A stretch of DNA of 64,000 nucleotides from Armatimonadota bacterium (GTDB taxonomy: Bacteria > Armatimonadota > Zipacnadia > Zipacnadales > UBA5352). The stretch lies in assembly GCA_034722055.1 (NCBI GenBank), contig JAYENL010000243.1, forward strand, positions 3,059 through 67,058, read 5' to 3'. Under the pieces are notes generated by a model, which was given only the letters and a program-made list of their open reading frames with translations, was not told the origin of the DNA and did no database searches. This document shows, piece by piece, positions 1 to 62,199 of this stretch (positions are counted from its first letter, which is position 1; each line of letters begins with the position of its first letter). The translations under genes and the position numbers were made by a program.

Positions 1-1330
1 ACTGGTAATAGTACTGCTTCAGGTCCTCCCAGCCGAAGTCGCGACCGCGATACCAGGCGTCAACCAGCAGGCTCGACATCGAGAAGACGTTGGGCAGCGA
101 GATGCGCGTGGGCAGCGTGAAGTCCCACACCCGCACGCGCACGGGCACGCTCAGCTCATCCAGGCCGTCCGGACGGAGATGCACTGTGGAGGTGTACTGC
201 CCGGCGGGGGCGTCCTCCGGGATTGCCACAGTCAGCCAGATGGGCTGCACCTGGCCGCGCGGCAGGTCGAAGGGCGCCATGGGGCTGATGCCATCGGGCC
301 ACAGGCCCACGTGATGCGTCAGGTAGGGCGCGTCCCGGGTGCGGACGTAGCAGACGAGGCCCAGCTCCACGGCGTCCGCCAGCGTGATCGGACCTCGCAG
401 CGGATCGCAGGTCACCTCCACGTGCGTCAGGTCGTCATCGACCGCCGCCAGCAGTACCTGGCCGGACTCCCGCTCATTGCCCGCGCACTGCAGGCGGAGC
501 GGTCCCGCCGCCTCCGCCGGCCAGATGTCACGGAAGACCTTCGCCATCGCGCCCACCGCGCCAACAGCGGCGGGTCCCTCCGTGTCGCGCCGCAGTCGCG
601 CGAAACTCAGCCGGGCCTCGGCCTCGTAGGCCCGCTCCTGCAGATCGCGGAACTGCGCCTCCATGCGACGCCACTGGCCCTCCGTGACCTCAGCCTCGCC
701 GGCCAGCAGCTCGTTGAAGCGCGTCGTCTGCTCCGCGGCGGAGCGCAGTGCCGCCGGGATGATGGCGCCCGCCTCACCTGTCGCCTCGGCGAGCTGCTGC
801 AGGCGCCGCGACAGCCACCCGTACCGCTCCCGGTTCGCCTCCACCAGCCTCGGGATGCGACTCGTCCCGTAGAGGCTGAAGCGGTTGACGACCGTCCACT
901 GGTAGTTGTGCAGGCTCAGCACTTCCATGCGCACGTAGCGGGCCTGGACCGGCTCCTCGAGGATGCGGAACCAGTACCTCCCCTGCCCGCCGATGTCCCG
1001 CACCTGCAGGGTCGTCGTCCACCGGCCGGGCTGCAGCCCGAAGCTGAGGTCGAAGTCATCGGCGGACTTGTCGTGGTAGCGCCAGTCGATCTCGACGGCC
1101 CGGATGGAGCGGACCTGGCCCAGGTCCAGCTCGAACCAGTTGGGCAGCGCACCCGGATACGAGAGATGGCTGCCGTCGCCGATGGCGGCGCGAACGTCGT
1201 AGGGCGGCGGGTTGACGCCCTCGGAGACGTCGTGCACCGTGGTGCCGCTGTCCACGTGCGCGAAGTCCACAGGCGGCTCATCGGGATCCGCACACGCCAT
1301 CACCGCTAGGCCGCCCAGCAGCAGCGGCAT
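1..1330 (-). CDS. Secreted F5/8 type C (discoidin) domain protein; 3' end truncated by the window edge
   Basis: The reverse-strand frame is open from the ATG at 1330 to position 1 and is not in the ORF track because it runs off the edge. N-terminal signal peptide MPLLLGGLAVMACADP. Discoidin-like segment NPPPYDVRAAIGDGSHLSYPGALPNWFELDLGQVRSIRAVEIDWRY. The overlapping +376 aa ORF (179..1309) is an antisense shadow. Confidence 0.7.
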   Translation of the reverse strand, partial: MPLLLGGLAVMACADPDEPPVDFAHVDSGTTVHDVSEGVNPPPYDVRAAIGDGSHLSYPGALPNWFELDLGQVRSIRAVEIDWRYHDKSADDFDLSFGLQPGRWTTTLQVRDIGGQGRYWFRILEEPVQARYVRMEVLSLHNYQWTVVNRFSLYGTSRIPRLVEANRERYGWLSRRLQQLAEATGEAGAIIPAALRSAAEQTTRFNELLAGEAEVTEGQWRRMEAQFRDLQERAYEAEARLSFARLRRDTEGPAAVGAVGAMAKVFRDIWPAEAAGPLRLQCAGNERESGQVLLAAVDDDLTHVEVTCDPLRGPITLADAVELGLVCYVRTRDAPYLTHHVGLWPDGISPMAPFDLPRGQVQPIWLTVAIPEDAPAGQYTSTVHLRPDGLDELSVPVRVRVWDFTLPTRISLPNVFSMSSLLVDAWYRGRDFGWEDLKQYYYQ

Positions 1331-1516
1331 GAGCGCTCGCGCCAGGGGTCGCGACAGCTTCTCCCAGCATAGTGCGGGGATCACCGACCGCTCGCCTCCG
1401 CACGTATCGTCGGTCCGCATGTGGGTGGATTCGAGGACGTTGCGCCAACACCTGCACGCAGCCAGCCCTGGCCCGCGCGTTCGGCTGACGCCGTGGCCTC
1501 CCTGTCTGCATGGCGC

Positions 1517-2536
1517 TCACATCAGCTCGATGGGGTAGGTCCCGTAGCGGCGCCCGGCCTCGCTCATAGTCATGATGTTCTCGAGCGTGCAGTAGTGCGC
1601 CAGGCTGTTGCCGCTGGTGAGGATGTAGCCGCCGCCCGGCGCCACGTCGCGGATCAGGCCCCGCACCTCCGCCTCGACCTCCTCGGGGCTACCCAGCATC
1701 AGCAGGTTCAGATCCAGGTTCCCCAGCAGGCACAGACGGTCGCCATGCTCTCGCTTCATCCACCGGATGTCCATGGCGCCCTTCTCGTTGGGGTGCAGCC
1801 CGTCGATGCCCAGAGGCAGCAGGTCGTCGAGCAGGGGCACCACGTTCCCGTCGCTGTGCAGCACCCAGGGCCTGCTGACGCCCTCGGCGATGGCCTGGAA
1901 GCGCGGAGTGACCAGCTCGTGGAACAGCTCCGGGGAGATGAGCGGGCCGCTCTTGCCCGCGAGGTCGTCGGTGGAGCAGATCACGTCGATGTCCAGCTCG
2001 CAGGCGCGCCTCATGACCTCCGCCGCCCAGTCGCAGTAGATGTCGAGCACCGTCTCGACGAAGCCCCGGCGCTCGTAGAGCGCGATGCAGAAGCGCTCCA
2101 TCCCCATGCTCAGCATAGCCGGGAAGAGCCCCTGGCGGGTGATCATCCACAGCGACAGGTCGCCCTTGTTCGCGGCCCACTCCGCCAGCGGCTCGTAGAG
2201 ACGATCGTCCTGGGGGTCGGGCAGGTCGATGATGTCGAGGTCCGCCTCCGAGCGGATCAAACCCTCGGTGTAGAACGGGGAGCCCCCGCCGGCCCGGGCG
2301 CGCCTGGTGTACACAGGCGCCCGGAGCACGTAGCAGATGTTGTCCTTGCGCAGCCGCTCGGCCAGCTCGATCTCGTCCTGCAGCCCGCGGGGGTTGGTCT
2401 CCAGGTCGGGCATCCGGGGGAACTCGCGGCCCAGCACCTGCTCGGCGATCTCCTGATCGACGCCGATCTCGCAGAAGGGAACTCGATCCGGCTCGCGCCC
2501 CGACAGGGCGGTGGCGACACGCTCGCGTGAGGTCAT
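1517..2536 (-). CDS. Uroporphyrinogen decarboxylase (URO-D) family protein (MtaA/CmuA-like methyltransferase or decarboxylase family)
   Basis: Translation from internal M (MTSRERVATALSGREPDRVPF...) shows the URO-D family N-terminal (E.PDRVP) and C-terminal (HSDGNV..LGIDGLHP) signatures. SD-like AGGAGAG just upstream. The first 21 codons of the track ORF are an unsupported extension. Confidence 0.75.
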   Translation of the reverse strand: MTSRERVATALSGREPDRVPFCEIGVDQEIAEQVLGREFPRMPDLETNPRGLQDEIELAERLRKDNICYVLRAPVYTRRARAGGGSPFYTEGLIRSEADLDIIDLPDPQDDRLYEPLAEWAANKGDLSLWMITRQGLFPAMLSMGMERFCIALYERRGFVETVLDIYCDWAAEVMRRACELDIDVICSTDDLAGKSGPLISPELFHELVTPRFQAIAEGVSRPWVLHSDGNVVPLLDDLLPLGIDGLHPNEKGAMDIRWMKREHGDRLCLLGNLDLNLLMLGSPEEVEAEVRGLIRDVAPGGGYILTSGNSLAHYCTLENIMTMSEAGRRYGTYPIELM

Positions 2537-2788
2537 TGCGCTCTCTCCTGTTCGGACGCAGCACGATGCGGCGTTCTCCCATGTCCCGGCCGGCCACACC
2601 CAGCCGGACCAGTCCTCGACCTATTCCCGCCCTCGCACGCTCCCCCCTGCCGCCCGGAGGCGCTCCCCTGCGTCTCCCCGCGCAGCCGGCATCAGAAGGT
2701 GGCGGGGGCCATTGCGGCAAACCTGCTTGTGGTGGCGCGAGCCTGGCGCGGCAGGCTCAACGACGCAGCTCTCGTGAGGGTTCTCGAC

Positions 2789-5700
2789 ATGAGGAGCGTC
2801 CTGACTGCAGTTGCACTCTTGGCGCTCGCCACAGGCGTGAGCGCTCAGCCGACGGTCTTCTGGGCATCCGACCCGGTGCGCCCGAATGAGACCGTCATGG
2901 TGTGCGGCGACGGATTCACCGACGGCCCCGCCGTGCGCCTGGCGAGGCTGCCGGACGAGGAGCCGGGCCGGCCGGGAACGGCCCTGCAGTGGCCGGCAGA
3001 GGCTGCTGAAGTTCAGGCCCTGCAGGCGGATGATCAGTCCCTGAAGTTCGTGCTCCCGGCGGACACGGCGCCCGGCGCCTGCGTGTTCCGCGTCGAGACC
3101 GCCGAGGGAGCCTCGGAGCCGGTGCGACTCAACTGCCCCACGCCCTACTGGTCGCAAGGGGATGTGGGCGTGACCGCCTCGCCAGGCGGATGGCTCCGCG
3201 TCTTCGGGCGCTGCGTGGGCAGCGAGGACGCGGATGCCACCATCCTGCTGCGCCCTGCGGGCGGCGGCGAGGACGTGCGGCTGTCGGCCACGGAGGCGGA
3301 CACCTGGTCGGTGACCGCTGAGGTTCCCGAGGACATTGCTGAGGCGAAGTACCGCGTCTTCGTGCACAACGGCCATGGCGGCCCGTACGGATGGACCGAG
3401 GCGCGGGCTATCGAGGTGGCTGCTCGGGAGCCGTGGCCCCGGGACGTCTTCGACGTGACGGAGTTCGGCGCCACCCGCCGGGGCCAGGTCCTGGACGGTG
3501 AGGCCATCCGCGCGGCGCTGGCCGAGGCGGCGGAGAACGGCGGCGGCATCGTCTACCTGCCGCGAGGCTACTACCAGGTACAGGGGACGCTGGAGATCCC
3601 GCAGCGGACGGTGCTGCGCGGGGAGGGCACGCAGCTCGTCAGCCTCTTCTGGCCGGACACCGAGGACCCCTACACGCTCATCGAGGGTACCAACAGCTTC
3701 GGCATCGAGGACCTCACCATCTACTGCACCAACTACCGGCACTGCATCGCGGCCGAGGTGGGGCAGCCGGACTCGGGCGACACCTTCCTGCGGCGGGTCC
3801 GCGTGCGCGCCGACATGTACCGCGGGCATCTGACCTTCGAGGAGATCGACGCCCGCTTTCGGACCCACAAGCAGCTCTCCAGCGGCGGCGGCGACTCCGT
3901 CCGCATGGGCGGCAGAAACGTGCAGATACTCGACTGCGACCTCTACGGCTCCGGCCGGTCCATGTACCTGCTGCGCGTCAGGGGCGGGAGGATCGCGGGC
4001 AACACCATCTACAACGGGCGGTGGGGCTGGTACTGCATCGACGGCTCCGACGGGCTGATACTGGAGAACAACCGCATCATCGGCGCGGACCTGATGTCCA
4101 CCGGCGGCAGCCTCAACTGCTACTCCAGCGCCTCCTCGCAGAACGTCTACTACGCCCACAATCACCTTCGGCTCATGCACGGCTGGGACCGGGAGGCCAT
4201 GACCAGCGACGCCGGCTACGGTGCCTGGTTCGGCACGCCGGTCGAGGTCGGCCCCCAGAGCCTCGTGCTGGGCGGAGATGAGCCCAACTGGGCGCGGAAG
4301 GCCGACTGGACCGGCGCCGGGGTCTTCGTCCTGGGCGGCAAGGGCATGGGCCAGTACCGGCTGGTCGCGGACTATGACGGCCGCAACGTAAGGCTCGACC
4401 GGCCGTGGGATGTCATGCCCGATGAGAGCTCACCCATCACCATCACCATGATGCAGCGCCAGTATCTCTTCATCGGCAACGACTTCGAGGACGTGGGCAT
4501 CGGCCTCCAGTACTACGGGACCTCCATCGACCACGTCGCCGCGGGCAATCGCGTCACGCGCGGCGGGGGCTTCTACAACTCCGGCCGCTGGTACCGCCAC
4601 TTCCAGCCAAGCTGGTACTGCCAGTTCCTGGGCAATGAGGTGCTGGAGGGCAACAGCTACCGCTACGGGCCCAACAACGCCACGGCCGCGGGCACCTCCT
4701 ACATCGGCAGCTTCGGCCTGCAATCGCACGACGGCGTCTCGCCGCTGGCGCTGTGCTCGGTGCACCGCCGCAACCATCTGCACAACAACGCGGAGATCCG
4801 GCTCATCGGGGTCAGCAAGCAGCATCCGGGGCTGCGGGACGCCGTCGCGGAGCACAACGTAATCGAGAACGCCGACCGGGGTATCTACGTCGATGACGGC
4901 TGCGTCGGCGTCCTGCTGCGCGAGAACCAGTTCGTGAACGTGATTGATGAGATGGTGGACGAGGAGAAGCTGCGGGCGGAGCGACAGCGGCGCCGCCAGG
5001 CGCTGCTCGACGAGGAGGGGCCCGTGGCCTACTGGGCCTTCGACGAGCGCAGCGGGCGGAACGTCCCGGACCTGTCGGGTCATGAACTCTGGGCGGTGCC
5101 CACCGGCGATATCGACTACGAGCAGAGCCTCTCGGGCACGGCGCCGCACCTTGACGGGTCGGCCTACTACGTCGTGGCCGGAGGCGAGGTGCTGGAGCTG
5201 CCCCGCATCACCATCAGCGCCTGGATCATGCCGGAGATGACCAGGGGCCGCTGGGGCGTGGTCGCCAAGCGCAATCGCGGGACGGCCTGCCCCTACGTGC
5301 TGGCCATCCGCCAGGGGGGAATCACCTTCGAGGCCACGGACGTGACCGGCGAGTGGTCCTACAACTTCACCACCGAGCCGGTCATCGAGGAAGGCGCCTG
5401 GAACCACATCGTGGCGGTGTGCGAGGAGGGCGTGGGGGCGAAGGTCTACTGCAACGGACAGCTCGTCGGACAGAAGCAGGCCACGGAGAGGCTGGTGAGT
5501 ACCGAAAACGCCCTGACGATCGGCTACGAGAACTGGGGCGGGGTCGAGGCGAAGGCCGGCGAGTCCGGGAACTTCCGGGGGCTTATCGACGAGGTCAAGA
5601 TGTGGTCGCGGCTGCTCTCGGATGAGGAGATTGCTGCCGAGTATGAGCGGCTGCGCGAGGACGCTGAGGCCGATGTGCGCCGGCGCGAGGAGGAGGCGGC

Positions 5701-6268: not shown

Positions 6269-6300
6269 TCGCGACGCTACTGGGAACGTGCGCAACTCGG

Positions 6301-6440
6301 CGTATCCTGACGAAGAGGACGCTCGCGGCTCGGTTGTGTTGAAGATGCGCGCGGCGTGCTCCGTGGAGGGGCCGCCGGGCGCGTAGCGCCCGGGGAGGCC
6401 TGTGAGCGCAGCGAACGGGCCGAAGGTTCCACCCCGGCCC
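6301..6440 (+). repeat. Copy A of a ~140-nt conserved intergenic repeat (candidate structured ncRNA or REP-like element)
   Basis: Near-identical to 36541..36680 (+) and to the reverse complement of 54069..54205. Shared core ggaggggccgccgggcgcg(y)agcgcccgg(k)gaggcctgtgag...ggccgaaggttccaccccggccc. Contains an 8-bp GC hairpin ccgggcgc-gya-gcgcccgg. Lies 33 nt after the stop of the upstream + gene. Confidence 0.6.
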
Positions 6441-22648: not shown

Positions 22649-22672
22649 CCAGGAGGACGGGCGGGAGCTGCC

Positions 22673-25537
22673 ATGACGAGAGGTCCGAGCTTCAAGTGGG
22701 CGTTGTTCTGCTCGGTGATGATTCACATCATTCTCTTCCTCACCGTGCCGATGGGCGGGACCATCGGCGAGGTGCGGGACCACGCCGTGCGGCGGGTGAC
22801 CGAGACCGCGGTGGAGTTCGTGACCTTCGTCAAGCCCAAGCCCCCGCCGCCCGAACCGAAGGTCACCAGGCAGCCGCGGCGCGTGGTGCGGCGTGTGGTG
22901 CGGCGCCCTCGCACGCCGAGGCGCCGCGCGCGTCCTGAGCCGAAGCCCGCGGCGGAGGAGGAGCCCGCCGAGGAGGAGCCTGCGCCTGAGGAGGCGCCCG
23001 AGCCCGAGGCCCCGCCCGAGTCCGCACCAGAGCCAGAGCCGGAGCCCACTCCGGAGCTGGCCGTCATGGCTCCCGAGCCGGTCGAGCCCGAGCCTGCTCC
23101 AGAGGCTGAGCCCGAGCCCGAGCCGGTGCTCCTGCATCCCGCCCCTGAGGCCCTTGGCGGCCTTGAAGCTGGGCCGGAGAGCCCCCAGGCCGGAGGCGGC
23201 GTCGAGGTCGCGAAGGCCGCCCCCGAGTTGGGTTCAGCCGCACCTGCGCCTATGCCCGCAGGCGTCGAAGACACCCCCGCAGGCGGCGCGGCGCCGGTGG
23301 CCGTGGTGCCACCGGGCTCAGGCGGCGGGGCCGCTCCCGGACCTCCTACGCCAGGCCCGGTCATCGCGTTCGGACCGTCTCCTGAGGACGCCCCCGACAC
23401 CCCGGGTCTCGCGGCAGGCCCCGGGGAACAGGGCTTGCCCAAGGCTGCGCCGGAGCTGAGGAGTCCCGGGGCCGGGCCAGCCGGCGCCGGCAGCGGAGCT
23501 GCAGGCGCTCCCGGTCAGGGCCCCGGAGCTCCGGGCCTCGGCCCGGTTGTCGCCACTCGCACGCGGGCTCCTGCCGGCCCTGGCCGCGGCCCGAAGCCTC
23601 CCGGCACGGCACCAGGCCCGGCCGGTGGCGGCGCTCCCGTCGGGCCCGGCACGGGTGACGCCCCTCCAGGGCCCGAGGGCGGCGGCACCGGCGGTTCGGA
23701 GCCGAAGCCCGCGCCAACGCGCATGGCGGCGGCCCCCGGTCCCGCGCCCGCGGGAGGCGGCGGCACCGCCGGCGCCCCGGGTGGTGGCTCGGGCGGCGAG
23801 GGCCAGCAGGCCGCCGGCCCGGCCATGATCGCCGCCAACCCCCGCGGGGATCGGCCCATCTACATCGGCGCGGGCTCGGGTGAGGGCCTCGGCCGCGGCC
23901 AGGGCGAGGGTTCTCCCGGCGGCGGGCCCTCCGGAGGCGCCGGCGAGGGCACCGGCGCCGGCACACTCGCCGGAGTCCCGAAGGCGACGCCCGGGATGGG
24001 CAGCGGAGGATCGGGAGGAGGGGGCTCCGGAGCGCCGGCGCTCAGAGGCGGCGGTGGTGGCGGAGCTGGCGGCACCGGCGGCGGCAGGGGCCGTGGCAGC
24101 TCAGGCGGTGGTACCGGGGGCGGCGGCACGGGCGGCGGCGGACCTGGTACCCCGGTAATGGCAGCCGGGGGCGGCGGAGGGAGCGGCGGCTCCGGCGGCG
24201 TCGGTGAGGGGCCCGGCCTGCCTGGCGGCCTCGGCTCCGGCGAAGGAGAGGGATACGGCCTTGCGGGCACAGGCACCGGCCTGGGCCTCGCTGGCCCGGG
24301 GCCCGGCTCCGGCGGCACCGGCTATCTGCTGGCCAAGGCCATGCCCGCAGGAGGCGGGGGCGGCGGCGCGCTGCCCGGCATCGGTGGTGAGGGCCCTGGC
24401 GGAGGCCAGGGCGGTCAGGGCGGCATCGGTACCGGCACCGGCGGCGGCATCGGCCACGGCACCGGTCCGGGTATCGGCCCGCTGGGGCCGAAGGCCGTGG
24501 GGATGGGCCCCGGCGAGGCGGTGCCCGGCGAGCGGCCTCAGATCATCCCAGGCTCCCTCCTGGCGGCGCTGTCAGGCCCGCTGGGGTTCGGCGGTGGGCC
24601 TGGCTCGGGGCTCGGCGCCGGCACGGGAGGGCTGCCCGGCAAGTCCGGACCCGGCATGACGCCCGGCGGCGCGGGGCTGGTGGCCCCAGTCGGTCGCGGC
24701 CTCGGCTTCGGTGGCGGTCTCGGCGGCGCTGGCGGAGGCACCGGCCTGGGCGCCGGCGGCGGACCGGTGGGCTTCGGCCTGCCGACGGCCGGAGGCACCG
24801 GCGGCGCGGGCCTCCCGCCGCTGCCAGGCCAGGGACCTTTGCTGCTCGCCAGCTCAGCCGGGCTCGCCCCCGGAATGGGTGGCATCGGCACCGGCATGCC
24901 TGGCGGGAAGAGCGGCCCCGGCGGCGGCCTCTACACCGGCGTGAGCGGCAGCTTCGACATGCCTATGGGCGTGACCACCGGCGACTACCAGGCGGACGCC
25001 CCCGGCATGCTGCACCTGCTCGGCCAGGTGCGTCAGCGCACGAACATCCACGTCACCGTGCACGAGCGCTACGTGCCGCTGACGCTGGAGAACATCAAGG
25101 ACTCTCCGGTCCTGCACCTGCGCGGGCACCGAGCTTTCAGCCTCACCGAGGAGGAGCGGGAGGTGCTGCGGCAGTACGTGGCACAGGGCGGGACGATCTT
25201 CGGCGAGGACTCCCACGGGCCCTTCGGGGAGTGCTTCCGGCGCGAGATGAAGAAGACCTTCGGCGAGAGCCTCACGGATCTGCCTGACAACCACGACCTC
25301 TACCGCGCATACTACGTCCTGGATCGCGTGCCGGCGGGGGACATGGGCGAGCGCTACCCCCTGCAGGGCATTGAGGCGGGGGATCGCCTGGGCGTGATCT
25401 TCTCGCGCAACGACTACGGGGACTGCTGGGAGGGGACCGGCGAGTGGGTGCGCCCGGAGGCCCGGGAGCCGGCCTTCCGCATGGGCGTGAACATCTTCAC
25501 CTACATCGTGGCCCAGTGGAAGGAGTACAGCAAGTAG
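22673..25537 (+). CDS. TolA/TonB-like envelope protein: N-terminal TM anchor, Pro/Glu-rich spacer, glycine-rich low-complexity region of roughly 350 aa, C-terminal DUF4159 domain
   Basis: N-terminus MTRGPSFKWALFCSVMIHIILFLTVPMGG (TonB/TolA-like anchor). (EP)n spacer. Extreme Gly composition across about aa 400-760. C-terminus HLRGHRAFSLTEEEREVLRQYVAQGGTIFGEDSHGPFGECFRREMKKTFG...GDCWEG...AFRMGVNIFTYIV matches my memory of DUF4159. SD AGGAGGA. Confidence 0.75.
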   Translation: MTRGPSFKWALFCSVMIHIILFLTVPMGGTIGEVRDHAVRRVTETAVEFVTFVKPKPPPPEPKVTRQPRRVVRRVVRRPRTPRRRARPEPKPAAEEEPAEEEPAPEEAPEPEAPPESAPEPEPEPTPELAVMAPEPVEPEPAPEAEPEPEPVLLHPAPEALGGLEAGPESPQAGGGVEVAKAAPELGSAAPAPMPAGVEDTPAGGAAPVAVVPPGSGGGAAPGPPTPGPVIAFGPSPEDAPDTPGLAAGPGEQGLPKAAPELRSPGAGPAGAGSGAAGAPGQGPGAPGLGPVVATRTRAPAGPGRGPKPPGTAPGPAGGGAPVGPGTGDAPPGPEGGGTGGSEPKPAPTRMAAAPGPAPAGGGGTAGAPGGGSGGEGQQAAGPAMIAANPRGDRPIYIGAGSGEGLGRGQGEGSPGGGPSGGAGEGTGAGTLAGVPKATPGMGSGGSGGGGSGAPALRGGGGGGAGGTGGGRGRGSSGGGTGGGGTGGGGPGTPVMAAGGGGGSGGSGGVGEGPGLPGGLGSGEGEGYGLAGTGTGLGLAGPGPGSGGTGYLLAKAMPAGGGGGGALPGIGGEGPGGGQGGQGGIGTGTGGGIGHGTGPGIGPLGPKAVGMGPGEAVPGERPQIIPGSLLAALSGPLGFGGGPGSGLGAGTGGLPGKSGPGMTPGGAGLVAPVGRGLGFGGGLGGAGGGTGLGAGGGPVGFGLPTAGGTGGAGLPPLPGQGPLLLASSAGLAPGMGGIGTGMPGGKSGPGGGLYTGVSGSFDMPMGVTTGDYQADAPGMLHLLGQVRQRTNIHVTVHERYVPLTLENIKDSPVLHLRGHRAFSLTEEEREVLRQYVAQGGTIFGEDSHGPFGECFRREMKKTFGESLTDLPDNHDLYRAYYVLDRVPAGDMGERYPLQGIEAGDRLGVIFSRNDYGDCWEGTGEWVRPEAREPAFRMGVNIFTYIVAQWKEYSK

Positions 25538-36396: not shown

Positions 36397-36540
36397 GTCC
36401 TTGGCCGGAGATGGCCGCAGGTCCCGCGGCTGCCCTGGCGAACTGACCACGTACTCGCCGAGGCCGCGAAAGCCTCCTCAGGACACGCTCACGCGGACGG
36501 AGGACAGCAGACAGGAACCCTTGTGAGTCGCGGAAGTCAG

Positions 36541-36680
36541 CGGATGTTGACGACGAGCGCGGTCGCGGGGCCTGGTGCTCGTGAAGATGTGCGAGAACTC
36601 GTTGGAGGGGCCGCCGGGCGCGCAGCGCCCGGTGAGGCCTGTGAGCGGAGCGAAGAGGCCGAAGGTTCCACCCCGGCCCA
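36541..36680 (+). repeat. Copy B of the ~140-nt conserved intergenic repeat
   Basis: Aligns end to end with 6301..6440. Lies 145 nt after the stop of the upstream + gene. 14-nt inverted partner (ggccggggtggcac) about 70 nt downstream at ~36747..36760. Confidence 0.6.
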
Positions 36681-36947
36681 TGATGCGCAGGTCTGCGGAC
36701 GGGCAAAATGGCGTGCAGGCGAGGGCGCCTGCACTACTTAGCGTGTAGGCCGGGGTGGCACCTGAGCGGCGCGTTCGGAGACCGCGCTGCTCACGCAGGC
36801 GCATACGCGCCTCTTCTCGCCTCGACAATTCGCCCGCTTGCTACGCTCGCGGCGACCTCTCCATGGCGGCAGCAAGCGTGTTACTGTGAGGCAGGATAAC
36901 ACCCGGACTTCTGCTACAGATTCGGTCATCAGGCAGGGGATATAGCC

Positions 36948-53605: not shown

Positions 53606-53957
53606 GGCGGCGCCGAGCCGGAATTGGCGTGGCTGACACGAGAAGTCTCCATGTCCTGCGGCATGGTGTCACCCCTCAGGCACATGGAGAGCAGCATCCC
53701 GCGTCCCGAGATTGAGTGCTGTCTCTGTGACGGACACGCGCCGCGGGCATTCGCCGGCCGCCGCCCGCGCACCTTCCCGCCGCCCGAAACTGCCCGGCGC
53801 TTCCCCGGCCGGACCAGCGCCGAGTCCTCCGCCACTCTCCCACCCTCACCGGAAGGACGGGGCCCATGCTCCGATGCAGCCGCTACTGGGCACCCTCCTG
53901 CCCAGTGGCAGGAGTTTGCGGATTATGCAGCGTCGCGGTGCCTCTGCTGCTGCCATG

Positions 53958-54035
53958 GAGGGGCCGCCGCGAGCGAAGCGAACGGGGCGCGGTCAGGAGC
54001 AGTAGCGACTGACCGCGCAGGTTCCACCCCGGCCC
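53958..54035 (+). repeat. Partial copy (both ends, shortened middle) of the conserved intergenic repeat
   Basis: ggaggggccgcc…gagcgaagcgaacgggg…gcaggttccaccccggccc. Its 3' end faces the 3' end of the full reverse copy at 54069..54205, forming an inverted pair. Confidence 0.5.
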
Positions 54036-54068
54036 ACGTCTCTTGATTGCGTGAAACGGCAGGCGCCC

Positions 54069-54205
54069 GGGCCGGGGTGGAACCTTCGGCCTGCTCGCTA
54101 CCCTCACAGGCCTCACCGGGCGCTGCACGCCCGGCGGCCCCTCCACCAGGCACCCCCTCATTTCCAACGCAACCAAGCCCCGAGTGTGCTCGTCGTTAAC
54201 CATAC
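54069..54205 (-). repeat. Copy C (reverse orientation) of the ~140-nt conserved intergenic repeat
   Basis: Its reverse complement aligns over about 137 nt with copies A and B, including the hairpin ccgggcgtgcagcgcccgg (U-G wobble). Sits immediately 3' of ackA and about 450 nt 5' of the hydrogenase operon. Confidence 0.6.
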
Positions 54206-54220
54206 GCGGAATTGCCCAAG

Positions 54221-55447
54221 TCAGCACTCCTGCGCCGAGAGCACCTCCATGGTGTCTCGGGCGATCATCAGCTCCTCGTCCGTCTGGATGACCAGCAGGT
54301 GCCCGGGGGCGTCATCCATGCCGATGGGGGCGATGCCGTCGTCGTACTGCAGATCGCTGAGGTTCCTGTCGGGGTCCTCTACGATGCCCAGGTGCTCCAG
54401 GCCCTGCACGCACCAGCGGCGCTGGAGGTGATCGTTCTCGCCAATTCCTCCCGTAAGAACCACGCAGTCGAGTCCCTCCAGGACTGCGGCGTAGGCGCCG
54501 ATGTACTTGCGGACCTTGTAGGCGAACAGGTCCAGGGTCAGCCGGGCCCGGTCATTGCCCCCGGCGGCCGCGGACTGGATGTCTCGCATATCGTTGCTCA
54601 CTCCCGACAGCCCCAGCAGGCCGCTGTGCTTCTGCAGCATGTGGTCGATCTCGTCGAGGCTCATCCCCAGATTCTGGGCCATGTAGAGGACGATCGCCGG
54701 GTCGATGTCCCCACAGCGTGTGCCCATCACCAGGCCCTCCAGCGGCGTGTACCCCATGGTGGTGTCGATGCACTCCCCGGCCTTCACCGCCGCCATGGAA
54801 CAGCCGTTGCCGAGATGGCAGGTGACGATCTTGTGGTCCTCGACGGGGATGCCCTGCTCCTGGAGGTACTGCCCGGCGCGCAGCGAGACGTAGCGGTGGG
54901 AGGTGCCGTGGAAGCCGTAGCGCCGGATGCCGTGCTCAGCGTACATCTCCCAGGGCAGCCCGTAGACGAAGGCGTGCGGGGGCATGGTCTGGTGGAAGGC
55001 GGTGTCGAAGACCGCCACGTGCGGGACGTGGGGCAGCAGCTCGCGTGCCGCCTGAATGCCCAGCAGGTTGGGCGGATTGTGCAGCGGCGCCAGCTCGCCG
55101 AAGCGGTCGATGGCAGCCTCGACGTCCTCGTCGATGAGCACGGAGCTGGCGAACTCCTCGCCGCCGTGCACCACGCGGTGGCCGACCGCATCGATCTCCT
55201 CCAGGGAGCCGATCACCCCGTGTTCGTCGTCAGTCATCACGTCCACGGCCTGCCCCAGAGCGACCCTGTGGTCGGGCATCTCCACGTCCTGCTCGAAGGT
55301 CCGGCCATCGTGGGTCTCGTGCTCGATGTTCGCGCCCTCGGTGCCCAGCCGCTCGCAGAGGCCGTTCGCCAGCGACTGCTCCCTTTCCATGTCGTAGAGC
55401 TCGTACTTGAGGGAAGAGCTGCCACAGTTCACGACCAGAACGTTCAC
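54221..55447 (-). CDS. ackA: Acetate kinase
   Basis: GTG start giving (M)NVLVVNCGSSSLKYELY…, preceded by SD GGAGGT 6 nt upstream. Motifs VHGG, GTSHRY, EVAAGTE-like. The first 75 codons of the track ORF are discarded. Confidence 0.85.
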   Translation of the reverse strand: MNVLVVNCGSSSLKYELYDMEREQSLANGLCERLGTEGANIEHETHDGRTFEQDVEMPDHRVALGQAVDVMTDDEHGVIGSLEEIDAVGHRVVHGGEEFASSVLIDEDVEAAIDRFGELAPLHNPPNLLGIQAARELLPHVPHVAVFDTAFHQTMPPHAFVYGLPWEMYAEHGIRRYGFHGTSHRYVSLRAGQYLQEQGIPVEDHKIVTCHLGNGCSMAAVKAGECIDTTMGYTPLEGLVMGTRCGDIDPAIVLYMAQNLGMSLDEIDHMLQKHSGLLGLSGVSNDMRDIQSAAAGGNDRARLTLDLFAYKVRKYIGAYAAVLEGLDCVVLTGGIGENDHLQRRWCVQGLEHLGIVEDPDRNLSDLQYDDGIAPIGMDDAPGHLLVIQTDEELMIARDTMEVLSAQEC

Positions 55448-57261: not shown

Positions 57262-59964
57262 TCAGTTGATCAGGCCCGCCGACGGCGCCTTCCCGGCGGC
57301 CGGCACATCTGCCTTCGCCACCTCCCCGCCCGCCGCCTCGTACTCCGCGATCGCCTCAGCGCCCGCGCCCTCTGTCCACCAGTCATCGGGCTTGAACGCG
57401 CCGGGCCAGCCCTCCACGTCCAGTATCACCCTCGCCGCGCGGGGCTGGCCGCCGTCCGCCACCAGCGCGGTGCGCAGGTACTCCGCCGGCCACGCGATGC
57501 GCGTGTCCAGCACCGTCACCTGTCCCTCCGCCTCCCGCACCTGCTCCGCCACCTCCCCGCTCCAGGTCAGCAGGACCGTGGCGCCCGAGCGCACATTCGC
57601 GGGGCCATAGTCGAAGGGCTCCTCGGAGACGTCCACACTCACCTGCGAGGACACCCGCGGGCGCTCGAAAGCGAGAGTCTCGCCAGGCTTGAGGGTCGGT
57701 GGCCGCATGCCGAAAGACGCCAACGGGCGCGGTTTTCCCGAGGCCACCATCACCCCGTCTGCTGCCTCCTCGCAGGTCACGCGCCACATCACCTTCTGCT
57801 CTTCACGCTCAACCTCAAGCGTCAGGTTCGCGTCACCAACCCGCAGGTTGCTCACTCTCATTGTCTGCACACCCTCGGGCAGGTTCGGCCTGAAGAATGC
57901 GAGGTCTTCGTGGGCACGCGGCTCGAAGCCGGTCAGGTACTGCAGCACCGCGGAGCCGTTGATGCCCCCCTCCCACGGCCGGATGCGGTGCAGGCCCCAG
58001 ACGTCGCGGGAGGGCGTGTCATCGGGCCGGTTCATCTCCGCGAAGCCGCCCGAGGGCTCCGCCGCCACCAGCAGACCCTCCAGCGCCTGCTCGGCCTCCG
58101 GGTGATCGATGGCGGCCAGCGCGGAGAGCACGTAGCCCGGCGTCATCCCCACGTAGTAGCCGCAGGCGGGGGTGAGCCTGCACGTCCCGGCGTCGGTCCG
58201 ATACAGGTGGCTGAGCGCGCTGAGCACGTTCTGCACCTGCTGGTCCTGGGGCTGCGCATAGCCGATCCACAGCGGCCGCAGGCAGATGTTGGCGAAGGGG
58301 TAGCGGTACAGCTCTCCGGAGACCGCGGACATCGCCGGCGCGTAGTAGCCGCGGTCGTCCTGCCAGTAGAGGCGCTCTGTGGCCTCGCGCACGAAGTCGC
58401 CCGCCTGGCGGTACTGGGCGATCTCCGCATCGTCGCGGCCAAGCGCCTCGCCCATCTCCGCCATCGCCTCGGCCGCGGCCACGTACTCGAAGGCCGAGTC
58501 CGCCGACCGCAGCGTCAGGTGCACGTAGTCCGGGCAGCTTCCCGGCTCCGCCTGGTGCAGCTCGTAGCCGGGGAAGCGATACGTCTCGTCGCCGTGGAAG
58601 GGCAGCCGCCCCGCCTCATCGACGTGGTGCCCCTCGAGGGCTCGCCGCAGGTAGTCCCAGCGCTCCTCGAGCTGCTCGGTCTCGCCGGTGTGCTGCCAGT
58701 ACCAGTAGTTCTGCAGGATCACGAAGCTGGCGATCTCGGCCTTGGGCGTCGGGACCTCGCTCCAGTCGATTCGCGGCGGACTCTCCACGTCCACGTCGAG
58801 GTTCAGCGGGAGGTTGTTGAAGATGCGCTTCTGCAGCGCACAGCCTCCGAAGTGGTAGCTGAGGTCCCGGTCCACGGACTCGAAGTCGCCGCAGTCGAGC
58901 AGGAGCTTGACCGGCCCGTTGCTGTCGCGGATCCACCGCTGGGTGTACTTGTGCATGGGGGAGTAGCCGCCGGCCTCCGCCTGCTGCACGCGGCAGATGT
59001 ACTTGTGGATGGTCATGAACTGGTCGATCTCCTCGCCGGCGCCCTCGACCTGCAGCGTGCGGTCATGCCAGTGTTGCCACCACCTGTGGCTGTCCTCGAA
59101 CAGCTCCCAGCCGGCGCTCTCGATCTCCTCCAGGATCTGCTGCTCGCCCTCCGCGTCGCTGGCGAAGGTGAGGTAGGCCAGCTTGCCCACGGACTCCTCA
59201 GACCGCACGCGCCCCAGCGGGCAGCCCACGGCCACCGCGCCCTCCAGTTCCGTGCCGAAGCTGCCCAGCGGCATGAGACGTTGCTCGATGCCCTCGGGCA
59301 TCTCCGGGATGACGCTCCGCTGCAGCACGCGGGTGTTCGCGCCCGCAAAGCCGGCCATCGCTCGGGCGCCGCCCCGCGTGAAGACCAGACCGTCCGCCGT
59401 CTCCTCGTCGGTGGGCATCGACGACTGCAGCGCCAGCGTCACGTCCACGGCCTCATCGCCCACGTTCGTGACCATGATCAGCGTGAGCACCGCGTCGGTC
59501 TCGGGGGGCACCGTCTGCAGCAGGTCCACCTGCACCGGCTCGCCCTCCCACCGGGAGCGCACCACCCCGCACGGCGCCACCCAGGCGGTGGACTGGCGGG
59601 CCGGCAGGATGGGCTCACCATCCACCAGCACCGCGGGCATCACCGACCCCATCAGCCCCGCCACCTTCTGGTAGGTGGGACCCAGCATGTCCTGTACGGT
59701 GCCCAGCGGGAGGCTGAGGCCGACGATGCCGAAGACGCGGCCGTTGCCGATGGGGTAGGCGCCCAGGTCGGAGTAGGTGGGCGGCCGGCCCTCCAGGTCC
59801 ACCTGCTGGTCCCAGGCCCGGAAGGTCTCCCCGGTCCAGCTTCCGGACGCGAAGACATCCTGGTGCGAGAAGGTGTGCGCGTCGCGGTTGCGCGGCCCGC
59901 CGCAGCCGGACAGCCCAATGAGTGCGCCCAGGACGGCTATGGCCAGAAGGCGTCTGAGAGTCAT
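57262..59964 (-). CDS. Lipoprotein, putative (alpha/alpha)6-type glycosidase-like enzyme (900 aa)
   Basis: Start at the internal lipoprotein signal MTLRRLLAIAVLGALIGLSGC (lipobox LSGC). The first 547 codons of the track ORF are antisense shadow. The remainder is protein-like; family unassigned. Confidence 0.6.
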   Translation of the reverse strand: MTLRRLLAIAVLGALIGLSGCGGPRNRDAHTFSHQDVFASGSWTGETFRAWDQQVDLEGRPPTYSDLGAYPIGNGRVFGIVGLSLPLGTVQDMLGPTYQKVAGLMGSVMPAVLVDGEPILPARQSTAWVAPCGVVRSRWEGEPVQVDLLQTVPPETDAVLTLIMVTNVGDEAVDVTLALQSSMPTDEETADGLVFTRGGARAMAGFAGANTRVLQRSVIPEMPEGIEQRLMPLGSFGTELEGAVAVGCPLGRVRSEESVGKLAYLTFASDAEGEQQILEEIESAGWELFEDSHRWWQHWHDRTLQVEGAGEEIDQFMTIHKYICRVQQAEAGGYSPMHKYTQRWIRDSNGPVKLLLDCGDFESVDRDLSYHFGGCALQKRIFNNLPLNLDVDVESPPRIDWSEVPTPKAEIASFVILQNYWYWQHTGETEQLEERWDYLRRALEGHHVDEAGRLPFHGDETYRFPGYELHQAEPGSCPDYVHLTLRSADSAFEYVAAAEAMAEMGEALGRDDAEIAQYRQAGDFVREATERLYWQDDRGYYAPAMSAVSGELYRYPFANICLRPLWIGYAQPQDQQVQNVLSALSHLYRTDAGTCRLTPACGYYVGMTPGYVLSALAAIDHPEAEQALEGLLVAAEPSGGFAEMNRPDDTPSRDVWGLHRIRPWEGGINGSAVLQYLTGFEPRAHEDLAFFRPNLPEGVQTMRVSNLRVGDANLTLEVEREEQKVMWRVTCEEAADGVMVASGKPRPLASFGMRPPTLKPGETLAFERPRVSSQVSVDVSEEPFDYGPANVRSGATVLLTWSGEVAEQVREAEGQVTVLDTRIAWPAEYLRTALVADGGQPRAARVILDVEGWPGAFKPDDWWTEGAGAEAIAEYEAAGGEVAKADVPAAGKAPSAGLIN

Positions 59965-60255
59965 GATCACTGGTACCTCGTGCGAGATCGAATGATGCTG
60001 TACCGCCGACGCCGTCGGCGGGCCCCGTCGTACGCACGCGATGACCTCGAAGGAGGCCGCCGCCCGGGCGAGGAAGTGCCTGCAGTGGAGGCGGGTGTGC
60101 GAGTCGAACGCACCCGGGGATCGATGCGCTGATCCCCGCCGCGGATTTGCAGTCCACGGGGGACACCGGTCCCGTCCCCGCCCAGTCAAGAAAACGGTTC
60201 GCGACAAAGCGTTGTTCCCCTGTCTGACTCGGCACAGGATTGAGGAGGCATTCCA

Positions 60256-62199
60256 GTGCGCGATAGCACACCAAGCCCTGAGACGGTCGGCACCATCACG
60301 CTCGATCCCGCAGGGCCCTTTGTGGCCGGCAGCCGGCACACGCTCACCCTCACCTATACCGCGGGCGAGTCCGGCATCGAGGTCGGTGGAGGCCTGCGTG
60401 TATTCCCGCCCCACATGGGGCACACCTACTGGGAGCTGGGGAAGGTCACCGCCGAGTGCTCGCGGGAGGGCGCCTGCATGGAGGTGGAGACCTTCAACGA
60501 CCAGCCCTACACCTTCCACCACTCCAACCCGCCCTACATCCGCGTCACCGTCTGGGGCCAGCCGCTGAGCGAGGGCGATACCATCACGATCACCATCGGC
60601 GAGCATGGCGGCTACTCCTCCGGCTACTTCCGCCTGGCACGGGTCGCGACACACGCCTGGCGCGGCTACCGCTTCACCGCGTCCGTGGATGTGCTGGGCA
60701 ACGGCCGGCGGCCGCGGGAGTTCGACCGCCCCGACGCATTCGTGGAGCTTCCCGACGTCCCCACGCTCGACATCATCGCCGATCAGCCCCATACCGCGCA
60801 CGTCGTGGCCAAGCCACCTGGCGAGGCGGACAGCGACCAGTTCGAGCTGGTCATCTCCATCCGCGATCGCTTCGGCAATCTCGCCGAGTACGAGGGCGCG
60901 CTGCGCGTGGAGTGCGATGACCCGGATGCCTCCCTGCCCGACGCTATCAGCGTGAACGAGGGGGCAGGGCCGTACGGCATCCGCTCGGGGCGACGGTCGG
61001 AGGGAGCCGCACGGGTCACCGGCTGCCATACCTCTGCGCCGAGGGCCCGGGTCACCGTCTATGACCCGCGCCAGGAGCTGATCGGCACCTCCAACCCCAT
61101 CGTCCCCGAGTTCGCCGGCGACGAGCGCGTCTACTTCGGCGATCTGCACGTGATGAGCGGGCAGGGCCGGTCGGGCGGCATGATGCTGGCCGGCACCGAG
61201 TACGCCCACCGCTGGGCCCGCGACGTGCAGGGCCTGGACTTCTCCGTGGTGACCAACGGTGGCGGAGAGAAGACCTGGGAGGAGGACCTGCGGCTGGACG
61301 ACGAGTTCGACGAGCCCGGGCGCTTCGTTACCATTCCGGCCATGGAGCGCGGCTTTCGCCGAGGGCACAAGAACCTGTACTTTCGCTCCAGCGCGGGCGT
61401 GCCGTCCATGCCCCGGCTGGAGATCGAGGGGATGTTCGAGTGGCTGGCGGAGCTGGACGTGCCGGCGCTGGCCATCCCGCACCACACCAACTGCCACTCC
61501 GAGACCAGCCGCTACTACGGCTGGGGCCCTCAGGACTTCACCACCTCCGACCCGCGCTTCGAGCGCCTCATCGAGATCACGCAGGACCGCGGCTCCTTCG
61601 AGCATGACGAGGTCGGCGGTGCGGTCTCGCTGGGCGGTAACGGCTCATCGGTGCAGGATGCGCTCGCGATGGGCCTGCGGATGGGCTTCGTCGGCGGCAC
61701 CGATAATCACCGGGCCCAGCCGGGCAGCAAGCGCTCGAATCTCGGTGGCCTGGTCGCTGAGGAGATCATCAACGGCGGCTACACGGCCGTCTTCGCGCCT
61801 GAGCTGACGCGCGAGGCGGTCTTCGACGCCCTCTGGGACCGCTGCTGCTACGCCACCACTAGCGAGCGCATCCTGCTGCGCGTCGCCCTCGGCGAGCACT
61901 TCATGGGCAGCGATCTCTCCGCGGAGGAGGCCGCGGAGTTCGCCGACGAGCGCAACATCCGCATCGAGGCCGTCGGCCGCCGGCATATCGACCGCATCGA
62001 GATCGTGCGCAACAACGAGACGGTGGAGTCGGTGGAGATCGACGAGGAGGAGGCCACGCTCACCTACACCGATCCGATGCCGCTGGCGGAGGTGCCGGCC
62101 GTCTCCGAGGAGGCGCCGGACGTGGTGTTCTACTACGTGCGGCTGATCGAGGCCGACGGCAACCGCGCCTGGTCCAGCCCCATCTGGCTGGGGAGGTAG
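60256..62199 (+). CDS. DUF3604-like protein (PHP-like metal-dependent hydrolase fold candidate)
   Basis: GTG start after SD GAGGAGG. Motif ERVYFGDLHVMSG resembles the DUF3604 'FGDLHxH' region (second His replaced by Met). Confidence 0.6.
   Translation: MRDSTPSPETVGTITLDPAGPFVAGSRHTLTLTYTAGESGIEVGGGLRVFPPHMGHTYWELGKVTAECSREGACMEVETFNDQPYTFHHSNPPYIRVTVWGQPLSEGDTITITIGEHGGYSSGYFRLARVATHAWRGYRFTASVDVLGNGRRPREFDRPDAFVELPDVPTLDIIADQPHTAHVVAKPPGEADSDQFELVISIRDRFGNLAEYEGALRVECDDPDASLPDAISVNEGAGPYGIRSGRRSEGAARVTGCHTSAPRARVTVYDPRQELIGTSNPIVPEFAGDERVYFGDLHVMSGQGRSGGMMLAGTEYAHRWARDVQGLDFSVVTNGGGEKTWEEDLRLDDEFDEPGRFVTIPAMERGFRRGHKNLYFRSSAGVPSMPRLEIEGMFEWLAELDVPALAIPHHTNCHSETSRYYGWGPQDFTTSDPRFERLIEITQDRGSFEHDEVGGAVSLGGNGSSVQDALAMGLRMGFVGGTDNHRAQPGSKRSNLGGLVAEEIINGGYTAVFAPELTREAVFDALWDRCCYATTSERILLRVALGEHFMGSDLSAEEAAEFADERNIRIEAVGRRHIDRIEIVRNNETVESVEIDEEEATLTYTDPMPLAEVPAVSEEAPDVVFYYVRLIEADGNRAWSSPIWLGR

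Follow-up and report, generated by a model that had tools for sequence, protein, structure and literature searches.

Repeat units in the 64-kb window

We analyzed a stretch of 64,000 nucleotides (referred to here as the window) from contig JAYENL010000243.1 of the Armatimonadota bacterium assembly GCA_034722055.1, which contains a repeated intergenic element. An earlier note, made from the letters of the window alone, placed three full copies of this element at 6301-6440 (+ strand; copy A), 36541-36680 (+; copy B), and 54205-54069 (-; copy C) and a fourth, regarded as shortened, at 53958-54035 (+; copy D). It took the element for a structured noncoding RNA (ncRNA) or, alternatively, for a mobile repeat resembling the repetitive extragenic palindromes (REPs). 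We reproduced these coordinates, as well as the distances of 33, 145, and 16 nt that separate copies A, B, and C from the stop codons upstream of them. The conserved object is a core of approximately 76 nt, GGAGGGGCCG...GGTTCCACCCCGGCCC, which encloses two variable hairpins. Both the 17-mer AGGTTCCACCCCGGCCC and TGGAGGGGCCGCCG have four exact occurrences in the 64 kb. When up to 3 mismatches were allowed, AGGTTCCACCCCGGCCC gave 6 matches, compared to 0.64 expected, and 6 matches were reached in 0 of 100 shuffles. A repeat search of the window aligned A and B at 91% identity across 82 nt and returned A and C (88%) and B and C (82%) as inverted repeats. Near-matches to both terminal motifs revealed a degenerate fifth unit, E, which brings the number of units in the window to one more than the four noted earlier.

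The core of unit A, which we call A-type, occupies 76 nt at 6365..6440 (+). It consists of a GGAG tag followed by GGGCCG, the 5' strand of the helix P1, the hairpins P2 (CCGGGCGC-GTA-GCGCCCGG) and P3 (GGCCTGT-GA-GC-GCA-GC-GA-ACGGGCC), and a 3' part made of GGTTCCACCC and then CGGCCC. The 76-nt cores of B (36604..36679, +) and C (54069..54144, -) are of the same type. P2 of unit C contains a T.G wobble, and the earlier observation that a C-to-T change in this copy keeps a wobble pair was correct. Unit D (53957..54035, +) turned out not to be a shortened copy. It has a complete core of 79 nt, with termini as in A and another hairpin pair, P2 (CCG..GAGCGAAGCGA..CGG) and P3 (GCGCGGTCAG-GAGCAGTAGCGA-CTGACCGCGC), which places it in another subfamily (D-type); only a leader of ~60 to 85 nt is missing. 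Unit E (36747..36862, -; 116 nt) is a degenerate D-type unit with an enlarged interior and two mismatches in each terminal motif.

Four of the units form two convergent, tail-to-tail doublets, B/E with a spacer of 67 nt (36680..36746) and D/C with a spacer of 33 nt (54036..54068). The B/E spacer contains a hairpin, GTGCAGGC-GAGGGC-GCCTGCAC, at about 36713-36734, which is kept in the composites of MAG (metagenome-assembled genome) E05-054. This conserved G+C-rich hairpin, GCGCAGGC-N6-GCCTGCGC, was observed in the spacers of A-type/D-type composites in the window (36713-36734) and at loci L001, L003, and L006; the D/C spacer (54036-54068) is without it.

The A-type units are preceded by a leader (TGACTTGCGCAA.TCCGCGTAT..TGACGACG...TGGTTGCGTTGGAAATG), which includes the palindrome TTGCGCAA and a copy of the GTCGTC motif in antisense. 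In unit A, the leader (TGACTTGCGCAA..TCCGCGTAT..TGACGACG..) spans ~85 nt at 6281..6364 (+), and the start at 6301 proposed earlier falls inside it. The leader of B lies at 36521..36603 (+). That of C (54145..54225, -) starts directly after the stop codon of the acetate kinase gene (54221..55447, -), the upstream neighbor of this unit. The leader is kept upstream of A-type units only, namely, A, B, and C in the window and those at L003 and L006 of MAG E05-054; at L001 of the same MAG, its sequence diverges.

Distribution of the repeat family

Genomes and metagenomes were searched with a two-part pattern of the terminal motifs, and the units were then listed with relaxed termini. The pattern detected 22 genome loci, all in MAGs labeled Armatimonadota, candidate division WS1, or Ca. 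Zipacnadia, and 92 metagenome loci. A scan of viral contigs gave 0 matches to the pattern. The 114 loci and the window yielded 166 units, 154 of them unique. The unit measures 63 to 95 nt. Of the pairs, 36 were tail to tail (gaps of 20 to 115 nt), 4 were head to head, and 3 were in tandem. The commonest dispersed form is the tail-to-tail doublet without a gene for a REP-associated tyrosine transposase (RAYT). The halves of a doublet carry unrelated interiors, each of which folds on its own strand. The covariance models of Rfam 15 returned nothing that overlapped any unit at the gathering score or at an E value of ≤10, and a literature search with the core sequences gave nothing relevant. MAG contigs often have an end no more than about 200 nt away from a unit or doublet (L001, L002, L006, L010-L012, L018, and many metagenome loci). 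This clustering of contig ends suggests that the repeats break short-read assemblies of Armatimonadota MAGs.

Miniature versions of the unit with one hairpin were also seen, at ~3170-3216 (-) of L066, ~2990-3050 (+) of L095, and 2297-2270 (-) of L042, where the miniature is placed directly 3' of the stop codon of a RAYT gene. An example of this form is GGAGGG-TCCCGC-GAA-GCGGGA-GGTTCCACCCCGGCCC.

The unit folds into a three-way junction with variable arms

The unit folds on one strand into a three-way junction, in which a closing helix of 6 bp, P1 (GGGCCG/CGGCCC), surrounds two hairpins. P1 carries the 5' GGAG tag and an unpaired strand of 10 nt (GGTTCCACCC), and all three are essentially invariant, in part because they were set by the search pattern. 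The tag was found in about 148 of the 150 unique units and also in the units that flank RAYT genes, which were found independently of the search pattern. Core variants are represented by GGTTCCACCCC and GCTTCCATGCC. The hairpins inside P1 vary freely and are perfectly paired. When only P1 was imposed on the fold, exactly two interior helices formed in 147 of 150 unique units of 60 to 125 nt. A perfect three-way junction with 0-nt linkers was obtained for 77% of the units, compared to 1% of dinucleotide-shuffled interiors, and the mean minimum free energy was -47.7 kcal/mol for the units, compared to -32.7 kcal/mol for the shuffled interiors. Folded as single sequences, the five window units have weak z-scores (-0.1 to -3.0) because of their high G+C content (70%), and the case for the fold rests on the comparison among copies.

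The arms P2 and P3 measure 15 to 36 nt and are wholly different among subfamilies, yet their pairing is kept. As arms of unequal length could not be aligned by MAFFT, we used structure-anchored counts, in which stem positions are numbered from the base of each stem, together with the shuffled-interior controls. In P2, bp 2 is CG (102 counts) or TA (44), and bp 3 is CG (69), GC (57), or TA (16). In P3, bp 1 is TA (115), GC (24), or CG (7); bp 2 is GC (89), CG (40), TA (10), or AT (7); and bp 3 is AT (76), CG (54), or GC (11). Noncanonical combinations at the counted positions of both arms were very rare.

We also considered two resemblances to known RNAs. A tRNA-like reading was suggested by the cloverleaf order of the helices and the T-loop-like GGTTCCACC; ARAGORN makes no call on the units, the arms are without conserved loops, and this is a resemblance only. 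A ribozyme or riboswitch core was suggested by a hammerhead-like motif (CUGUGAG...CGAA) in P3 of the A-type and was rejected, as the motif is not kept in other subfamilies.

One folded strand is under selection

With the same counting rule on both strands, the sense strand had 70 internal G.T pairs and the antisense strand had 25. The commonest apical loops are C-GNA-G triloops (about 104), a C-GCCA-G tetraloop (29), and G-TCGTT-T types (about 45), and CGTT occurs in apical loops 41 times, compared to once for AACG. These strand-specific wobbles and loops indicate that a single folded strand is under selection. The wobble bias is not proof of RNA, because G.T pairs are also tolerated in single-stranded DNA. 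Triloops and tetraloops closed by G...A, such as C-GNA-G and C-GCCA-G, are typical of very stable DNA mini-hairpins. The positions of the units relative to genes were also recorded. Unpaired units between codirectional genes are sense in 8 cases and antisense in 15, and in a doublet, the convergent layout itself puts the partner on the opposite strand. Spacers between divergent genes are poor in units and contain 3 of 38 classifiable singletons. Around B/E, neither a sigma-70-like promoter nor an intrinsic terminator was detected.

The units bracket the genes of a RAYT clade

At locus L042, an orphan 3' motif follows an open reading frame (ORF) of 166 aa with the motifs CLMPDHLHILL and SYVLNNPVRVGL. 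The protein scores 81.4 bits on the NCBIfam model NF047646 (REP_Tyr_transpos, REP-associated tyrosine transposase; cutoff, 80) and also matches Pfam Y1_Tnp. Armatimonadota and WS1 MAGs contain homologues of this protein, which group in a tight clade (58 to 69% identity). Six further members of the clade score 91.0, 104.4, 91.7, 87.7, 90.4, and 78.4 bits on NF047646, the last of these being below the cutoff. On the IS200 model NF033573, the clade RAYTs reach 20 to 41 bits, far under the cutoff of 55. The sole PDB match was E. coli TnpArep (4ER8; E = 3e-6). Both the HUH motif (D-H-x-H) and the tyrosine motif (Y-x3-N-P) are invariant in the clade.

Seven distinct genes of this clade were examined (L042/L124, L091, L119, L120/121, L122/123, L125, and L126), and convergent units bracket all seven. 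In the six with both flanks, the ATG is preceded at 25 to 55 nt by a unit on the strand of the gene, and a second unit, inverted, extends over the stop codon. At L091, the contig stops within the gene, which confines the evidence to the 3' side, where the inverted unit was seen. The arrangement unit-RAYT-unit is identical in layout to the tail-to-tail doublet dispersed elsewhere without the gene, and this follows the logic of REP/REPIN-RAYT systems. Moreover, the RAYT C terminus AGRGGT (the last five or six codons; L119-L126) is encoded by the reverse complement of GGTTCCACCCCGGCCC, and a RAYT variant ending in AGRHGS is accompanied by the variant core GCTTCCATGCCGGCCC. With the C terminus inside the repeat and the variants paired, enzyme and repeat overlap physically and covary. 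The gene occupies the slot ilvN-RAYT-ilvC in three lineages (L119, L120/121, and L124) and the slot argJ-RAYT-argB in two (L122/123 and L125). An outgroup RAYT (L127; 28% identity) is associated with the classical GTAG hairpin and has no units.

Presence/absence polymorphism and flanks of the units

The spacer between ack and mbhD, which houses units C and D in the window, is free of units in four syntenic relatives, whose Ack proteins are 80 to 83% identical. An Armatimonadota MAG encodes a protein with 100% identity to the acetate kinase of the window. At the nucleotide level, a BLAST search of the window against all collected loci gave no syntenic locus and, with it, no empty site. The family is overwhelmingly intergenic. 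Among about 130 loci, the sole gene with intragenic copies is hypF at 295-3054 (+) of L016 (contig DHPY01000039, Armatimonadetes UBA5352). It contains two in-frame, stop-free repeat insertions, a full doublet at 1524-1685 and a unit with a 9-nt partner stub at 2607-2710, which contribute '...LEGPPRAQRAVIPPPRAGSGSTPAH...' to the protein.

Units are bordered on both sides by a short motif, (G/C)(T/C)CGT(T). The form [GC][TC]CGT was found in 67% of 5' flanks, compared to 7% in the background, and in 47% of 3' flanks, compared to 12%. There is no element-specific flanking duplication, as the longest common substring was 3.89 for an element's own flanks and 3.91 for shuffled pairings. Between the widely spaced head-to-head units at L063 and L113, we looked for an autonomous element and found only housekeeping genes. 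The flank motif was also seen as a tandem array, GCCGTTGGCCGTCGTTCGCCGTCGTTGGCCGTCGTTCGATGCCGTT, adjoining the RAYT-distal unit at 3720-3785 of L120, and as GTCGTT(T), it is present again in some P2 and P3 arms, at their apical loops. GTCGTT(T) may be a candidate cleavage or target motif of RAYT.

Comparison with known repeat systems

REPs, bacterial interspersed mosaic elements (BIMEs), and REPINs form systems with RAYTs in E. coli and Pseudomonas (Nunvar 2010, PMC2817692; Bertels & Rainey 2011, PMC3116915; Messing 2012, PMC3479197, PDB 4ER8). In such systems, repeats flank the RAYT gene in inverted orientation and disseminate as doublets (PMC5581495; PMC3116915), and abundant 16-mers flanking the gene are a hallmark of RAYTs, which show vertical, domesticated behavior (PMC5581495). 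The repeats described here share with them a small Y1 HUH transposase of the RAYT type (NF047646, 4ER8), a gene bracketed by cognate inverted repeats, extragenic dispersal as inverted doublets and singletons, no target-site duplication, selection on a single-strand fold, and a conserved 5' tetranucleotide tag followed by a stem. They differ in the tag, which is GGAG rather than GT(A/G)G, and in being three-way junctions of 63 to 95 nt, with P1, two hairpins, and an unpaired 10-nt strand, rather than one imperfect palindrome of 20 to 40 nt. The doublets are nearly all tail to tail and, since their halves have unrelated interiors, do not form one long hairpin, unlike those of REP-RAYT systems. 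The host phylum, Armatimonadota, is also different.

RAYT-like genes flanked either by GTAG REPs or by long, sometimes double-palindromic terminal inverted repeats (TIRs), with dispersed single and dimeric copies, have been described by Di Nocera et al. 2013 (PMC3733652). The definition of TIRtrons/TIRYTs in that paper, a tyrosine transposase gene within long non-GTAG TIRs and copies dispersed singly or as dimers, describes what we found. Further likenesses are inverted repeats unrelated to GTAG REPs, some of them double palindromes, a flanking repeat that may overlap the 3' end of the gene, and moderately abundant families of singles and dimers. Armatimonadota is mentioned 0 times in the paper, whose GTAG and CGTC repeats come from nine phyla or superphyla, and in the passages considered here, no closed three-way junction is described in which the core is invariant and the arms can be swapped. 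As further differences, the GGGGWSAS motif is matched only approximately by our units (GGGGTGGA), and our protein scores as a RAYT proper in NCBIfam.

The two insertions in hypF recall Rickettsia palindromic elements (RPEs) and intragenic REPs, in which a stop-free palindromic repeat lies in frame within a coding gene. RPEs are CGTC-tagged single hairpins without a dedicated transposase (PMC3733652), whereas the intragenic copies found here are restricted to one gene. The ends of IS200/IS605 elements and the derived palindrome-associated transposable elements (PATEs) resemble the units in their Y1 HUH chemistry, in subterminal hairpins read on one strand, in the lack of target duplication, and in short conserved flanking motifs, which have the same orientation on both sides of the element and can be compared to left and right cleavage sites. 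Their left and right hairpins are on the same strand, whereas the units that bracket RAYT are inverted; for this reason, and given the scores of 20 to 41 bits on NF033573 against a cutoff of 55, a miniature of this kind was rejected. We also rejected integron attC sites. Their consensus consists of the R''/R' core sites RYYYAAC ... GTTRRRY, which pair at the base, and they form cassette arrays beside an integrase. The termini of our units are GGAGGGGCCG and GGTTCCACCCCGGCCC, and the units form convergent pairs, not cassette arrays.

The units as probable REP-like elements cognate to RAYT

We consider it highly probable that the repeats are nonautonomous REP/REPIN-like elements of the "TIRtron" type, cognate to a clade of Armatimonadota RAYTs (HUH/Y1). 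The units probably act as single-stranded DNA. By analogy with E. coli TnpArep and IS608 TnpA, RAYT would bind the folded single-stranded unit during replication, reading the conserved core (tag, P1, and unpaired strand) and ignoring the arms. The strand-specific wobble and loop biases lend indirect support to such binding and to cleavage. The enzyme would cleave and rejoin at the flanking motifs nearby, with the GCCGT type as the candidate site, and units would so be spread or maintained without target-site duplication; some may be mobile at present. According to this model, the unit-RAYT-unit arrangement would be a 'master' form, the dispersed form would be the doublet minus the gene, and singletons would be remnants or half-elements. 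Stable folds downstream of genes, as at 16 to 145 nt after three stop codons in the window, may affect transcripts secondarily, as REPs do.

Several observations weigh against this explanation. The search pattern prescribed the terminal motifs, and their 'invariance' is therefore partly a matter of ascertainment. By tblastn, there is no RAYT gene inside the 64-kb window, and the four unit-free ack-mbhD spacers are too diverged to fix exact insertion boundaries. The features of classical REPs, a GTAG tag and a single hairpin of 20 to 40 nt, are missing from the units, and the leader upstream of A-type units is not accounted for. For this clade, the enzymatic action of RAYT and the transposition of the units would have to be argued from analogy, and sequence alone does not decide between RNA and single-stranded DNA.

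In the headline of the earlier note, the element was a candidate structured RNA. Such a primary function (as a 3'-untranslated-region stabilizer, a terminator-like element, or a small RNA), to which the RAYT association would be incidental, is unlikely. It would agree with the location of A, B, and C on the sense strand 16 to 145 nt past stop codons, with the scarcity of units in divergent (promoter) spacers and their enrichment near gene 3' ends, with the G.U-compatible wobbles favored by the sense strand, and with the strong covariation of the arms, which the note had proposed as a check and which is abundant at their stem positions. Effects of REPs on mRNA stability have also been reported (PMC3733652). 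The match in orientation to the upstream gene, however, holds for A, B, and C and breaks down in the family as a whole, where unpaired units between codirectional genes are sense in 8 cases and antisense in 15 and the two members of a pair always occupy opposite strands. Likewise, the wobble argument drawn from copy C generalizes to the 70 sense pairs against 25 antisense but falls short of proving RNA. The Rfam check suggested in the note gave no match for the units at the gathering score or at an E value of ≤10, and the surroundings of B/E are without a detected sigma-70-like promoter or intrinsic terminator. Four orthologous ack-mbhD spacers are unit-free, units are able to sit within a coding frame (hypF), and units bracket each of the seven RAYT genes from the clade. 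In addition, the loops are GNA and GNNA mini-loops, which differ from the usual RNA tetraloops. The alternative offered in the same note, a REP-like mobile repeat, is strongly supported, and its ncRNA headline is not supported as the primary explanation: the units are dispersed in multiple copies in many Armatimonadota genomes, are missing from the orthologous spacers of four relatives, and bracket RAYT genes.

The doublets have conserved termini in inverted orientation, with GGAGGGGCCG at either outer end, and a spacer that is short and variable, and contigs frequently break at the repeats. The doublets could also be read as miniature inverted-repeat transposable elements with long TIRs, moved by cut and paste by a DDE-type insertion sequence. 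This reading is scarcely tenable. No target-site duplication, which the earlier note had proposed to look for, extends past the generic motif, and no DDE transposase was found near or between units, the widely spaced ones enclosing housekeeping genes. The doublet halves differ inside and each folds on its own strand, the wobble and loop bias is strand specific, and the sole adjacent transposase is the Y1 HUH RAYT. A further explanation is a host-domesticated DNA site, for a nucleoid protein, gyrase, or a termination factor, kept by selection and only maintained by RAYT. The conservation of the core in several MAG lineages speaks for it, as does the presence of RAYT at conserved syntenic slots (ilvN-ilvC in three lineages and argJ-argB in two), which fits the vertical, domesticated behavior of RAYTs (PMC5581495). 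The binding protein is purely hypothetical, with no candidate identified, and the finding that units are present or absent at the same orthologous locus speaks against a locus-specific role. We regard this explanation as very unlikely on its own; it is compatible with that of REP-like elements cognate to RAYT and does not exclude it.

Within the explanation by REP-like elements, it is possible, and we propose it tentatively, that the unit represents a RAYT substrate of a structurally new class, namely, a three-way junction of single-stranded DNA. The enzyme would read its invariant 26-nt core (GGTTCCACCC, the GGAG tag, and P1), and its arms would be exchangeable modules. The core would have coevolved with the transposase, whose C terminus is encoded by the repeat and tracks the core variant (AGRGGT/AGRHGS), and would be kept across a poorly studied phylum; action as RNA would also be possible.

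Other features of the window

A tRNA at 60086-60183 (-) matches the Rfam tRNA-Sec model RF01852 with 59.4 bits (gathering score, 47) and is called by ARAGORN as a 97-nt tRNA-Cys with the anticodon GCA. Together, these calls describe a Sec-shaped tRNA with a Cys anticodon, which we take to recall the selC*/allo-tRNA class. It lies inside a long stop-free frame (57262..61605, -) without a Pfam match. The idea that the units are selenocysteine insertion sequence (SECIS) elements of 3' untranslated regions was rejected, as their termini and arrangement are unsuited and no link was seen to this nearby Sec-like tRNA. A long ORF at 22649..25537 (+) contains short direct repeats rich in Gly, Pro, and Glu (window positions 22900-25000; repeat families D1, D2, D4, D5, and D14). 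Its product is a low-complexity repetitive protein, unrelated to the REP-like units.

Implications

A candidate 'new ncRNA' is accounted for here by a known mechanism, that of a selfish or domesticated repeat. Armatimonadota, including MAGs labeled WS1 and Zipacnadia, join the lineages in which RAYT-repeat systems occur. In annotation, these repeats can simply be marked by the 16-mer GGTTCCACCCCGGCCC, which may explain the frequent breaks of MAG contigs at these sites. The repeats also indicate that those cognate to RAYT can far exceed the GTAG hairpin in complexity, here as a closed three-way junction with a fixed core and swappable arms. The 154 unique units, together with a variant core that accompanies a variant enzyme, offer natural variation for dissecting recognition by HUH enzymes. 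If the unit does represent such a new class of RAYT substrate, it would provide a natural test case for the reading of DNA shape by these enzymes.

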